A stretch of 64,000 bases of DNA from Allocoleopsis franciscana PCC 7113 (GTDB taxonomy: Bacteria > Cyanobacteriota > Cyanobacteriia > Cyanobacteriales > Coleofasciculaceae). Positions within the stretch are counted from its first letter, which is position 1; each line of letters opens with the position of its first letter. The position numbers were made by a program, and so were the translations under genes. Below, one piece after another: positions 23,658 to 26,941 of this stretch. Below the pieces are notes generated by a model, which did no database searches, was not told the origin of the DNA, and saw only the letters and a program-made list of their open reading frames with translations. The stretch covers positions 1,617,623 to 1,681,622 of the forward strand of contig NC_019738.1 in the NCBI RefSeq assembly GCF_000317515.1, written 5' to 3'.

Positions 23658-24446
23658 TCACGGAATACGACTATTTATAGTTCTAATGGTTAGTACATGT
23701 GGAGGTGTTGAATCAGGAGGATAAATGAAGTCTAATTGCACCGATTTACGACTTCCGGGCGGCATTACCAACGTTTCCAAGGGTTCCAGAACCTCACTCG
23801 TGCGGTGCCATAAATGCACGTAGCGAGTCTTTTCCTGACCTTGATCATCTTTGTAGCGGAGGCGGACAGTCCCGCGCAAGAATGGCCAATCGCGGGGTGG
23901 TTTTTGGAACAGGAGTCCCCCCCGGCTCAATTTCTCCTCTTTTAAAGGAGTTTCAACGGTCAGAGCCACCTTTTGGGGTTTATCGGTGGGATTATAAAGA
24001 GGGATGTTCAGGTTATATTCAACAGCATAGTTTCCATGTGCTTCATAGGCCGTGTCGGGATAACGTACAAGCATTCGCGCTGTCTGATTTTGATTGGTAC
24101 CTAGCCGTCCTCCCCGCAGGGTGTTGAGACCATAGGAAACAGCTTGACCAGATTGAGGAATGGTGAAATCTTTAGAGGTAGGGCTATCAACAATCTTTCC
24201 CTGCCACTTTGAGCCTTGTTGCACACCGGCAACACGACCATAAATCAGTTGACCACTGGTCTGTTCTGGGGGAGTGGGAGCTTTATCTCGTGGCCCTGCT
24301 AAACGGCCTGTATTTAGGAGAGTTTGCCATTCTTTTAAAGTCGGTGCTTTGTCACTACCATCGGGATTTTTTTTGGCAAACATGGTTAAACTAGCGGCAT
24401 AAACCTGACCATTACTGTTTAATCGCATCAAAGCCGATGGGAGCAT
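23658..24446 (-). pseudogene. C-terminal half (262 codons) of a conserved cyanobacterial secreted protein of unknown function, possibly DUF3370, split by an IS insertion
   Basis: Once the IS and one copy of the 8-bp duplication are removed, the reading frame of 26132..26941 runs straight into this ORF (...EKPINGRSA|LMRLNSNGQVY...). The apparent ATG is supplied by the IS terminal repeat. Confidence 0.7.
24431..24438. repeat. Target-site duplication AAGCCGAT (left copy)
   Basis: An identical 8-mer at 26212..26219 directly flanks the other terminal inverted repeat. Confidence 0.75.
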
Positions 24447-24476
24447 CCCAATTGTGCAAAAATAAAGGGACAGCCA

Positions 24477-24502
24477 TTATTCGCGAGTAATAATCGCGAA
24501 TA
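24477..24502. repeat. IS-internal palindrome TTATTCGCGA-gtaataa-TCGCGAATA (copy 1, subterminal)
   Basis: Perfect 9-bp arms. Two further copies occur at 24938..24965 and 26142..26170, and none was seen elsewhere in the window. Confidence 0.7.
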
Positions 24503-24513
24503 CTTCGGGAGAT

Positions 24514-24924
24514 TCAATCCTGCGGTTTTTCTTCCTCCTGCTCGGCTCCAGAAGTAATATCCAGCAAGCAATCATCTAGGGAACGGATGAGCTTCTGTAT
24601 CTCATCGATAACAGAACGCCTAAAAACAGACATGACAGCATCTATATGGTCAGTAGTACCAGCTTTCCCCAGATGCTTGTATTTACTCAACTCTTCGGAG
24701 GTCGCGCATGGGAAGTATGGAGTCGGCACTTGTAATTTGTAGTACCAATATTTCTTATTATTTTGCCGAACTTGATAACGCGCTACCCAAGCCCCGGATG
24801 GAGCCAGCTCACCCTGTTTTAATATTTGTCTTTGTTGTTTTTCTAACGCTGCTATCGCCTTTTTAATACGCTCAAATCGAGCGAGTTTATCTCGCTCAAT
24901 ATCCTTGGAAGTCTTTCGAGGCAT
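24514..24924 (-). CDS. IS passenger/accessory ORF (136 aa), hypothetical
   Basis: It lies inside the IS, downstream of the transposase on the same strand. It is a charged protein that is Lys-rich at the N-terminus and acidic at the C-terminus, with no recognised domain. Confidence 0.4.
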   Translation of the reverse strand: MPRKTSKDIERDKLARFERIKKAIAALEKQQRQILKQGELAPSGAWVARYQVRQNNKKYWYYKLQVPTPYFPCATSEELSKYKHLGKAGTTDHIDAVMSVFRRSVIDEIQKLIRSLDDCLLDITSGAEQEEEKPQD

Positions 24925-24937
24925 AAAGATAAATCCT

Positions 24938-24965
24938 AATTATTCGCGATTGTAACTCGCGAAAA
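24938..24965. repeat. IS-internal palindrome (copy 2, between the transposase and the passenger ORF)
   Basis: The sequence is tattcgcga-ttgtaac-tcgcgaa. Confidence 0.6.
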
Positions 24966-25003
24966 AAAGCAGCGTGCTTCTTTTCATACTGTTTTTGGGT
25001 TTT

Positions 25004-25858
25004 TTAAGCGCTTGGAGCAAGCTGTCGATTCAGATAAGCGCACCGCAGTTGCAGCATTTGCGGTAAATTTTGGGACTTCCATTGAGCGCCGACTATTTGT
25101 AGCCGCTTGTCTATCTGTTTGACCGCAGACTCTACAGCTCCCGAAGCAATCGAACTTAATTGTTCGGCTTGAAAGTACATATAATTGACTAAGCGATGCC
25201 TATGTTTACGTAGATAACTTATAAAGTTAGTAGCCCCGACATAGTTAGTTTTCCGGAGTTTACTAATCGCTTCTTCGACCACTCCTTGCCACAAATCTGC
25301 TTCGATTTGTTCTAAAAACTTTTTCGATGCCTGAATTTTATAGAGGTTCTCTTTCAAATGATACCAGTCAAGAATTTCTTGTCGGGTCTGGTCGTCGGCT
25401 ATTTGTGCAAATAGGTTCCACACCCCATCGTGTCCATCACCCAAGCAATAAATGGTTCGAGCCAGGTTTTGGCTGTTCACCCAATTAATTAGAGAAAAAT
25501 TATCTTGAAAGAAGGCTCCGTAATATATTCCTTGTAGTCGTCCGGTTTTATACTCCTTCCAGTAGGCGGGTTTACCTTTTTCCTGTGAGCGTAAACGCAC
25601 TTTCCCACCATCGAGACAAACTTCTGTCAGTTTTTGTTTAATATTAGGTGGCGATAGCTCTACTTTCTGGGCTTGGCGATGATGAGTGCTGTGACCTACT
25701 TCTACCCCGGTCAAGACTTTCAGGTCATTCTCTGCATCTTGAAATGATTCATTTGCTGCAAGTAATAAACAGCATTTTTCCAGAAGAGGACTTAACCGTC
25801 GATACGGCTCAATTCCTAAACGTGACGCTTGTTTTTGAGTGATTTTTATCCGACCCAC
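25004..25858 (-). CDS. DDE transposase, catalytic part (284 aa from a GTG start)
   Basis: The candidate DDE residues are CLDGGK, CLGDGHDGVWN and the C-terminal SGAVESAVKQIDKRLQIVGAQW (an E followed by K/R, as in IS256/ISL3/ISKra4-type enzymes). Confidence 0.6.
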   Translation of the reverse strand: MGRIKITQKQASRLGIEPYRRLSPLLEKCCLLLAANESFQDAENDLKVLTGVEVGHSTHHRQAQKVELSPPNIKQKLTEVCLDGGKVRLRSQEKGKPAYWKEYKTGRLQGIYYGAFFQDNFSLINWVNSQNLARTIYCLGDGHDGVWNLFAQIADDQTRQEILDWYHLKENLYKIQASKKFLEQIEADLWQGVVEEAISKLRKTNYVGATNFISYLRKHRHRLVNYMYFQAEQLSSIASGAVESAVKQIDKRLQIVGAQWKSQNLPQMLQLRCAYLNRQLAPSA

Positions 25859-25866
25859 ACAACTTC

Positions 25867-26082
25867 TTATCGTTCGGATGCGTCCCGATTCTGTTCCCGT
25901 CTTTTCTCCGATAAAAAAAAGGTTATTTGGGGGCTGACATGTTCTAGCACTTGGTCGCGCACCGCTGTTTCAATACCCTCTAACGTCTCAATTTTCTCTT
26001 GTGGAGTATTTTTATAGAGAATTTTAGCTATCGCCTTGATATGGTCGGCTAAAAGTTTTTTGTCTTCTGGTGTCATTGTCAT
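25867..26082 (-). CDS. N-terminal segment (71 aa) of the IS transposase, in a different frame
   Basis: It overlaps the start of the 284-aa ORF by 10 nt in another frame. A T8 homopolymer (A8 on the + strand at ~25913..25920) lies just upstream of the overlap, which suggests either a programmed frameshift or a slippage-inactivated gene. Confidence 0.4.
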   Translation of the reverse strand: MTMTPEDKKLLADHIKAIAKILYKNTPQEKIETLEGIETAVRDQVLEHVSPQITFFLSEKRREQNRDASER

Positions 26083-26131
26083 AAAGAGGCTCCCTAACTA
26101 ATTAAATTGTCGCAGTTAGGGCAACATCCGC

Positions 26132-26941
26132 CTAGTCGGCCTTTATTCGCGAGTAAAAATCGCGAATAAACTTCCCGTTCTCTTGCCTTCTTGCAAAATT
26201 GGGATGCTCCCAAGCCGATCGCCCATTAATTGGCTTTTCTAAATTCCCCACAGGTGTGGGATGATTCAGCAACATCCGGCTTTGTCCCGGTGGAATCACC
26301 AATTTTGCTGGAAAATCCGCCTGTCGTTTACCTTGGAGGACGTCGTGTACGGCGCGATCGCCTGGGCCAGCATAAGCCGTATTGTTCGGATTTTCTTGAT
26401 AGGTGGGTAAGGGAATGTAAGGTGCTTCTTGCGTCAGATAAGTTGCCCCTTGCAGCACATCGACTGTTACGGGTTGTTTGCCTGGATTATGTAAAATAAA
26501 TCCTAGATAAAAGGTCTGTAAATCTTTGGGAGTATGAGTTTGGTGGTGAAGAAATACATCAAATCGTCCCTGAAATGGAAAGTTGAGATGAGCGGCTGGA
26601 ACCGCTTTTCCACTTGGGGGAAAGGTAGACAGTAAAATCCCTTCCATCTTCACCCATTCCGGGCTATTACTATTAAACATCGGTACTGTATCCAACTGAC
26701 CGGGTAAAGCTTTCACGGGTTGGGGTTGTACGATGATTTGAGGTGTTGGCTTCGGTGTGGGTGTTGTTTGGGCTAAGGCTTCTGAAAGAGGTGCAGATTT
26801 TTTGGCGAATAACCAAGACGCACCACCACCTGCAAGAGCAAGAACTAGGAGGTAAATGATAGGAGGAAGATTAAATTTTTTCTGAGTCATAAGAATTGAA
26901 GCCTGACACCGATTATTCGATTTTCTTCTTTCTGATTCCAC
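26132..26941 (-). pseudogene. N-terminal half of the IS-disrupted conserved secreted protein (see 23658..24446)
   Basis: It has a signal-anchor N-terminus. Its last 26 codons (WEHPNFARRQENGKFIRDFYSRIKAD) are read from IS sequence before it reaches a stop. Confidence 0.7.
26142..26170. repeat. IS-internal palindrome (copy 3, subterminal) TTTATTCGCGA-gtaaaaa-TCGCGAATAAA
   Basis: Perfect 11-bp arms. Confidence 0.7.

Follow-up and report, generated by a model that had tools for sequence, protein, structure and literature searches.

An insertion sequence within a DUF3370 gene

In a 64-kb window of the genome of Allocoleopsis franciscana PCC 7113 (the whole stretch of DNA that was analysed, to which all coordinates refer unless another contig is named), a gene encoding a DUF3370 protein is interrupted by a complete insertion sequence (IS) of 1,773 bp, located at 24439..26211 (Table 1). 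All three open reading frames (ORFs) of the IS are on the minus strand, as is the interrupted gene: two of them encode the parts of a transposase, the third encodes an accessory protein of 136 amino acids (aa), and three copies of a palindromic sequence are distributed along the element. The IS is flanked by an exact 8-bp direct duplication, AAGCCGAT, both copies of which (24431-24438 and 26212-26219) directly abut its ends; the probability of a chance match for a given pair of 8-mers is 4^-8, about 1.5e-5. The termini read GGGAGC, and the 24-bp terminal inverted repeats (GGGAGCATCCCAATT[G/T]TGCAA[A/G]AA) are identical at 22 of 24 positions, as the initial annotation had reported together with the duplication. 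A 21-nt inverted-repeat pattern was found in only two places in the window, at the ends of the IS, compared with 0.01 expected. Homologous elements in other genera, most of them with 8-bp duplications, stop at the same GGGAGCATCCC termini; therefore 24439..26211 represents the true extent of the element, and its description as a complete IS stands.

Deletion of 24439..26219 in silico creates a 1,503-nt open frame on the minus strand that reads ...LEKPINGRSALMRLNSNGQVY... across the junction. The joined protein, 483 aa from the ATG at 26890, matches the Pfam profile of DUF3370 (PF11850) from end to end (positions 1-422 of 422, E = 1.6e-192, 640.5 bits versus a cut-off of 25), which bears out an identity that had been put forward only as a possibility. 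More than 3,000 database proteins match the joined protein; the best of them, also 483 aa long, has 94% identity across 100% of its length. In an alignment with 12 homologues the junction (...EKPINGRSA/LMRLNS...) is free of gaps, and the nearby residues N222, G223, R224, S225 and R229 are invariant. Thus, the two ORFs originally listed (26132..26941 and 23658..24446) are one gene with thousands of homologues that span the junction, as had been claimed, but their limits are not those of the gene: the N-terminal fragment runs 80 nt into the IS (26132-26211) before a stop codon, and the right terminus of the IS (…GGGATGCTCCC, 24439-24446) provides an ATG in frame with the C-terminal fragment, so that these ORFs extend 80 nt and 8 nt into the IS, respectively. 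The GTG at 26941 is probably not the true start codon; the ATG at 26890 is likelier because homologues begin at MTQKK. A hydrophobic N-terminal stretch read directly from the sequence, LPPIIYLLVLALAGGGASWLF, fits a signal-anchored protein, in keeping with the proposal of a secreted or signal-anchored product. No record of the joined protein, of its 262-aa C-terminal fragment or of the protein P0004 was obtained by exact-protein look-up, no relative of the joined protein was found in a search of PDB, and a paper search for DUF3370 or PF11850 gave nothing.

Table 1. Features of the interrupted locus in window coordinates, and positions in other contigs of derivatives of the IS and of distant homologues of its accessory gene
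Feature	Position	Strand	Remarks
N-terminal part of DUF3370 gene	26220..26890	-	Start ATG 26890, signal-anchor segment, residues 1 to about 224
Target-site duplication copy AAGCCGAT, transposase-proximal end of IS	26212..26219	.	Sequence match
Complete ISKra4-family (ISMich2-group) IS	24439..26211	-	1,773 bp, GC 42.8% vs 48.0% for window
Left terminal inverted repeat (transposase-proximal), GGGAGCATCCCAATTTTGCAAGAA	26188..26211	-	Has conserved TTGCAA
Site 1 palindrome, TATTCGCGA-N7-TCGCGAATA	26144..26168	.	Element positions 44-68, interval between left repeat and transposase start
Transposase frame-0 ORF, N-terminal part	25867..26082	-	71 aa if no frameshift
Slippery run, T8 then A (coding strand), heptamer U_UUU_UUA in frame 0	25912..25920	-	Conservation and published description
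Transposase -1 frame, catalytic part	25004..25911	-	Conceptual fusion of 359 aa, NF033572 match
Site 2 palindrome, transposase-accessory intergenic region	24941..24965	.	-10-like TACAAT in spacer
Accessory gene, 136 aa, uncharacterised family	24514..24924	-	Homologue search, structure prediction
Site 3 palindrome, TATTCGCGA-N7-TCGCGAATA, just past accessory stop codon	24478..24502	.	39 nt from right IS end
Right terminal inverted repeat, GGGAGCATCCCAATTGTGCAAAAA	24439..24462	+	Pairs with left repeat
Target-site duplication copy AAGCCGAT	24431..24438	.	Sequence match
C-terminal part of DUF3370 gene	23658..24430	-	Stop codon 23658-23660
Accessory homologues in contigs with Tn5-like elements	L213 4001-4396; L216 3313-3708; L217 3473-3880; L218 1768-2175
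Further contigs with Tn5-like elements and an accessory homologue	L222, L226, L227 (3001-3393)
Non-autonomous derivatives	L010 4028-4131; L046 1076-1182; L088 429-535; L116 4621-4723

Empty site, copy number and recency

The uninterrupted state of the locus was found in a relative, in a contig (L001) that is syntenic with the window: the gene encoding the 94%-identical DUF3370 homologue is intact and is followed by genes for a 1,532-aa glutamate synthase and a 493-aa oxidoreductase. Nucleotide identity between L001 and the window is 92-93% on both sides of the IS, window positions 24439-26213 are missing from L001, and a single ATCGGCCC occupies the place where the gene strand of the window has ATCGGCTT twice, which is the empty site anticipated in the initial annotation. 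In the window, the glutamate synthase is AFZ17304.1 and the adjacent accessory protein is AFZ17305.1.

In independent Logan assemblies of two sequencing runs (SRR610357 and SRR610358), the contigs are broken precisely at the IS. One contig (L211) consists of 27 nt of the end of the IS, then the duplication and then the C-terminal part of the gene. The IS itself was assembled as a separate contig of 1,771 nt, which begins precisely at the terminus and matches the window copy with 100% identity; this collapse into a contig of its own is the behaviour expected of a repeat. Exact-protein look-up of the accessory protein returned at least four accessions of identical sequence in the PCC 7113 genome, and therefore at least four copies of the IS encode an identical accessory protein there. 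As both halves of the DUF3370 gene are free of other lesions, the insertion is real and, as had been suggested, recent. The IS family is active in PCC 7113 at present. No evidence contradicting the insertion itself was found; it is an ordinary, routine gene disruption, and by itself it matters little.

The structure of the locus indicates that the DUF3370 gene product is probably inactivated, and it is reasonable to suppose that the gene is dispensable under current conditions, as the sequenced culture carries the insertion, although one window leaves room for a DUF3370 paralogue or a mixed culture population. Judged by the insertion alone, a protein with thousands of cyanobacterial homologues is apparently non-essential in culture, and PCC 7113 may serve as a natural knockout for DUF3370 studies.

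The GC content of the IS is 5 points below that of the window (42.8% versus 48.0%), and the HIP1 octamer GCGATCGC, which is present 47 times in the window compared with 0.73 expected, does not occur inside the IS. Both features are consistent with recent acquisition from genomes like those of Nostocales, in which most relatives of the IS are found. The target of insertion lies in GGGCGATCGGCTT, a near-HIP1 sequence (window 24431-24438, corresponding to about 3411-3418 of L001); other copies of the IS have unrelated 8-bp duplications, and therefore no target preference is evident.

The transposase and its frameshift

The 284-aa ORF of the IS matches positions 100-422 of the NCBIfam profile NF033572 (ISKra4 family transposase) with a score of 266.3 bits, and the 71-aa ORF upstream of it matches positions 2-70. 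The two frames overlap at ACC UUU UUU UUA, where the slippery heptamer U_UUU_UUA (of the form X_XXY_YYZ) is in frame. A -1 slip at this point would fuse 57 residues of the N-terminal frame with 302 residues of the catalytic frame, and the resulting 359-aa transposase matches the profile over its length (positions 2-422 of 422, 304.9 bits, cut-off 205); the product of unslipped translation would have 71 aa. Residues D158 (LDGG), D216 (CLGDGH) and E318 (AVES), which are invariant in an alignment of five transposases with 46-58% identity, are assumed to be the catalytic DDE residues. These matches assign the IS to the ISKra4 family, and the split transposase frame assigns it to the ISMich2 group, for which 8-bp direct repeats and GGG termini, both present here, are typical. 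The ISMich2 group was defined by a conserved -1 frameshift between the two ORFs of the transposase, and programmed frameshifting was proposed (Guerillot et al. 2014, PMC3942029).

Full-length relatives of the IS, 1,768-1,790 bp long and about 71-90% identical in nucleotide sequence, are present in Nostoc, Fischerella, Aphanizomenonaceae, Rivularia and others, and every one of them has T8 at the same place. Runs of T7-T9 were noted at the frame junction in 42 distinct junction sequences, with transposase identity as low as 45%, and runs of T10 in a few further metagenome loci; altogether, a T7-T10 run is found at the frame junction in almost every relative checked, in long and short forms of the element. 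The -1 fusion has 357-365 aa in nine of 13 complete elements, and extra disruptions are present in the other four. Several relatives have annotated coding sequences of 1,064, 1,067 or 1,076 nt, each of which leaves a remainder of 2 on division by 3, the outcome to be expected had the two frames been joined at a -1 slip during annotation. No conserved structure downstream of the slip site was obvious in the 42 aligned junctions, on which no formal covariation analysis was run. From the conservation of the T run we infer that the -1 slip actually occurs, by the ribosome or possibly by RNA polymerase; transcriptional slippage on the T run would yield the same protein. The window copy of the IS looks functional.

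The accessory protein

There are 307 close homologues of the accessory protein, almost all of them about 136 aa long and 74-94% identical to it, which is above the DNA identity of most full-length relatives of the IS (71-76%). NCBI often names these homologues "transposase", a label carried by several hundred proteins, and in the PCC 7113 genome, which has been public for years, the genes of the IS are annotated as encoding hypothetical proteins. The protein has no meaningful match in Pfam, NCBIfam, PHROGs or the sequences of PDB. A structure model made with distant homologues in the alignment consists of a helical hairpin and a small three-stranded sheet (predicted local distance difference test, pLDDT, 92); a first model, from a shallow alignment of close homologues, had a pLDDT of 56 and was not used. 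The N-terminal half is basic and the tail is acidic, and no recognisable DNA-binding fold was found in the protein.

Two fusion proteins contain the accessory domain: in P0271 (465 aa) it follows the C-terminus of a TniQ domain (PF06527), characteristic of a transposition protein, and in P0249 (232 aa) it is joined to an HU/IHF-type DNA-binding domain (PF00216). A motif in which a basic, aromatic beta-hairpin precedes a conserved glycine-lysine segment would link the family to DUF6788 (PF20586), a tentative relative. Distant homologues have only precomputed 'faint' matches to PF20586; the window protein had no Pfam match to it at E <= 0.1, and its homologues had none at E <= 1 when scanned again.

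Three palindromic sites

The palindrome TTATTCGCGA-N7-TCGCGAATAA, with perfect arms of 10 bp and a loop of 7 nt, occurs three times in the IS, compared with 0.02 occurrences expected. Site 1 comes directly after an nAnnnT hexamer that lies 17 nt downstream of a conserved TTGCAA; the TTGCAA, which belongs to the left terminal repeat, and the hexamer could be a -35/-10 pair. Site 2 is situated about 25 nt upstream of the start codon of the accessory gene, and the -10-like TACAAT in it is TATAAT in most relatives, where the spacer has a conserved GTTATAA that reads TATAAT with the next base. These statements about promoters rest on conserved positions and not on a consensus promoter and terminator scan of the IS, which gave no more matches than shuffled sequence. 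The whole window had no match in Rfam at gathering thresholds or in a tRNA scan.

In 13 non-identical elements with about 71-90% nucleotide identity, the core TTCGCGA-N7-TCGCGAA is exact at 39 of 39 sites, and the spacers are free to vary at sites 1 and 3. The site pattern is kept even in elements with transposases that are only 57-63% identical. Sites 1 and 3 of L002, an element of Nostoc flagelliforme, have 7-nt spacers that are identical when one of them is inverted, and in the window element the two spacers are nearly identical in direct orientation; this suggests occasional flipping of the spacer or conversion between the two sites.

Co-occurrence of the accessory gene and the sites

Short elements of the ISMich2 type, which have similar termini and the T run, contain neither the accessory gene nor the TCGCGA palindrome; those examined were 1,180-1,305 bp long (ISOni1, 1,180 bp; a Microcystis element, 1,262 bp; a Nostoc element, 1,305 bp). 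Among 80 metagenome loci that were retrieved by transposase alone, the sites are present in all of the approximately 16 loci that have the accessory gene and are absent from 28 of the approximately 29 informative loci that lack it. In the one exception (L138) only transposase residues 3-308 were matched, and it is read as what is probably a truncated long element. The counts of loci in this comparison are not phylogenetically independent.

Distant homologues of the accessory protein (about 30% identity) are encoded directly downstream of an unrelated, Tn5-like transposase of 460 aa (PF14706 and DDE_Tnp_1), in ISs of the IS4 family from marine and Pleurocapsales cyanobacteria. Sites occupy the same three positions in these elements too, with a different sequence, TGGTTAGCGA-N7-TCGCTAACCA, and the site upstream of the accessory gene has a centre resembling TATA(C/A)T. 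A Pleurocapsales subgroup of the Tn5-like elements has three non-palindromic sites, TTAGCGAA-N5-GTTACACAAC, in the positions kept by the others, and the two subterminal copies face in opposite directions, as parts of the IS ends would. Another accessory homologue is flanked by yet another variant, GTTAGCGTAA-N3-TTACGCTAAC, and the accessory gene with its flanking sites is sometimes found with no intact transposase alongside. The sequence of the sites thus follows the subfamily of the accessory protein and not the family of the transposase, which makes the accessory protein the obvious candidate for their reader.

Derivatives of the element

Short non-autonomous derivatives (103-107 bp; Table 1) are made up of both termini of the IS with one palindrome between them, and at least one of them (L088) is flanked by a target duplication. 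An internally deleted derivative of 979 bp was found at 2584-3562 of L060. A long-type relative on a plasmid of Gloeothece verrucosa PCC 7822 (L126, 2852-4232) has its accessory gene split by an IS630-family element and keeps site 1 upstream of the transposase. In two metagenome contigs (L142, 1627-1649; L169, 3-31) the right and left ends of the IS abut each other with spacers of 1 nt and 7 nt, respectively, and L142 looks like a circular permutation of the IS. These junctions look like those of IS circles or tandem dimers, and would fit copy-out/paste-in transposition, which is known for relatives of IS256.

Proposed mechanism and alternatives

The locus is almost certainly best explained by transposition of an ISKra4-family (ISMich2-group) IS, with a transposase produced by slippage and an accessory protein that would bind the three sites, into the DUF3370 gene. 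On insertion, the 1,773-bp IS duplicated 8 bp of its target and divided the coding sequence after about codon 226; its Mutator-like DDE transposase would be made only upon a -1 slip at U_UUU_UUA. The accessory protein would bind three cognate candidate sites: the first just downstream of the left-end -35/-10 pair, which resembles a promoter; the second covering the -10 box of the accessory gene; and the third just inside the right end. With such an arrangement, the accessory protein may regulate its own expression and either repress the transposase or help to pair the two ends of the IS. The chances are close to even that it binds DNA, controls its own gene and also sits on both ends of the IS, with repression of the transposase promoter or pairing of the ends as the outcome. 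A tentative extension, to which slightly less than an even chance is given, is that a protein of a new family and its three sites constitute a portable control module independent of the transposase, which cyanobacterial ISs of the ISKra4 and Tn5-like (IS4) families may have recruited independently and in which sites and protein may have co-evolved.

The palindromes might act instead as nucleic acid hairpins (terminators, stabilisers of mRNA, or hairpins recognised by the transposase). Their perfect 10-bp arms and 7-nt loop can fold, and the accessory gene lies between sites 2 and 3, placed as hairpins at transcript ends would be. However, within an element all three sites have the same, invariant arms and the spacers drift, whereas a purely structural role would permit compensatory changes to arise independently at each; no palindrome is followed by a U-tract, and none of three terminator-like matches from the scan coincides with a palindrome. 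Moreover, the transposases of the short elements, which are of the same group, work without the sites, and the Tn5-type sites of Pleurocapsales keep their positions without being palindromic. Because the sites track the accessory subfamily and their symmetry is dispensable, they are better regarded as a sequence-specific protein site than as hairpins, for which the probability is low. Scarcely less unlikely is the possibility that the accessory gene is selfish or beneficial cargo, with a role such as anti-defence or addiction, and that the repeats are regulatory sequences of this gene or the boundaries of its cassette. The association of the gene and flanking sites with two unrelated transposase families, sometimes with no intact transposase beside them, would be natural for cargo, as would the lack of a recognisable DNA-binding fold in the protein. 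Cargo would not account for a third site that, in both IS families, is always present at the distant end, next to the transposase, and mirrors the site at the opposite end, nor for the single site retained between the termini of the 103-107-bp derivatives, nor for the fusion of one accessory homologue to TniQ. Binding of the sites by the accessory protein is the preferred reading.

The remaining alternatives concern the integrity of the IS and of the locus. Decay could have split the transposase frame and left a dead copy, given that there are two ORFs in place of one and that four of 13 relatives have extra disruptions; but this is very improbable, since the same T run is at the same junction in 42 distinct elements with transposase identity down to 45%, the -1 arrangement has been published for the ISMich2 group (PMC3942029), and the window copy has no other lesion and is one of a set in which at least four genome copies encode an identical accessory protein. 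Even less credible, to the point of being negligible, is an assembly chimera or a pair of separate native genes with no insertion, in favour of which nothing was found: the same junction between IS and gene is present in independent assemblies of two sequencing runs, the joined protein aligns with its homologues without gaps, and the site is empty in a relative.

Relation to known systems

The IS shares with the ISMich2 group (for example, ISOni1 of Oscillatoria nigro-viridis) a Mutator-like DDE transposase of the NF033572 type with a -1 slip at a T run (PMC3942029), as well as the termini GGGAGCATC(C/T)CA, 8-bp target duplications and cyanobacterial hosts. It differs in that members of the group are described as simple ISs ("all ISMich2 TEs are IS", PMC3942029) and the short relatives of 1,180-1,305 bp encode the transposase only, whereas the window IS, at 1,773 bp, has in addition the 136-aa gene and three cognate palindromes. 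With its conserved second gene, the element represents a variant lineage of the ISMich2 group. A literature search, which left out ISfinder, found no paper on the accessory protein and its sites. Thus, the family, the group and the frameshift are already known, the conserved second gene with cognate sites departs from the published description, and the element is a modestly novel IS variant.

As a lead, the IS is of more use than the insertion: it offers a clear case for testing, an IS-encoded accessory protein whose candidate binding sites are defined, in an arrangement that recurs with two unrelated transposase families. Should the protein prove to bind these sites, ISs would have a modular means of self-regulation or of pairing their ends, and the "transposase" label on several hundred proteins would be corrected; as part of a portable module, the protein would belong to a previously undescribed class of IS-encoded regulators or end-pairing factors.

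The frameshift resembles the -1 frameshifting of IS1, IS3 and IS911 (OrfA/OrfAB), where an X_XXY_YYZ heptamer is likewise located in the overlap of N-terminal and catalytic frames and where, as probably in this IS, the short unshifted product holds the N-terminal domain; however, those transposases belong to an unrelated superfamily, and they slip at A6G or A7 rather than at a U run. For the accessory protein, the nearest parallels are InsA of IS1, which binds the inverted repeats, and the repressor of phage Mu, which binds the operator/internal activation sequence. By analogy with these small proteins, each encoded by its own element, the accessory protein has candidate sites close to the termini and at a promoter inside the element; they have no relationship to it in sequence or fold, and in the present case binding is putative. 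The accessory module recurs with two unrelated families of transposases, unlike InsA or the Mu repressor, for which, to our knowledge, no such recurrence is known.

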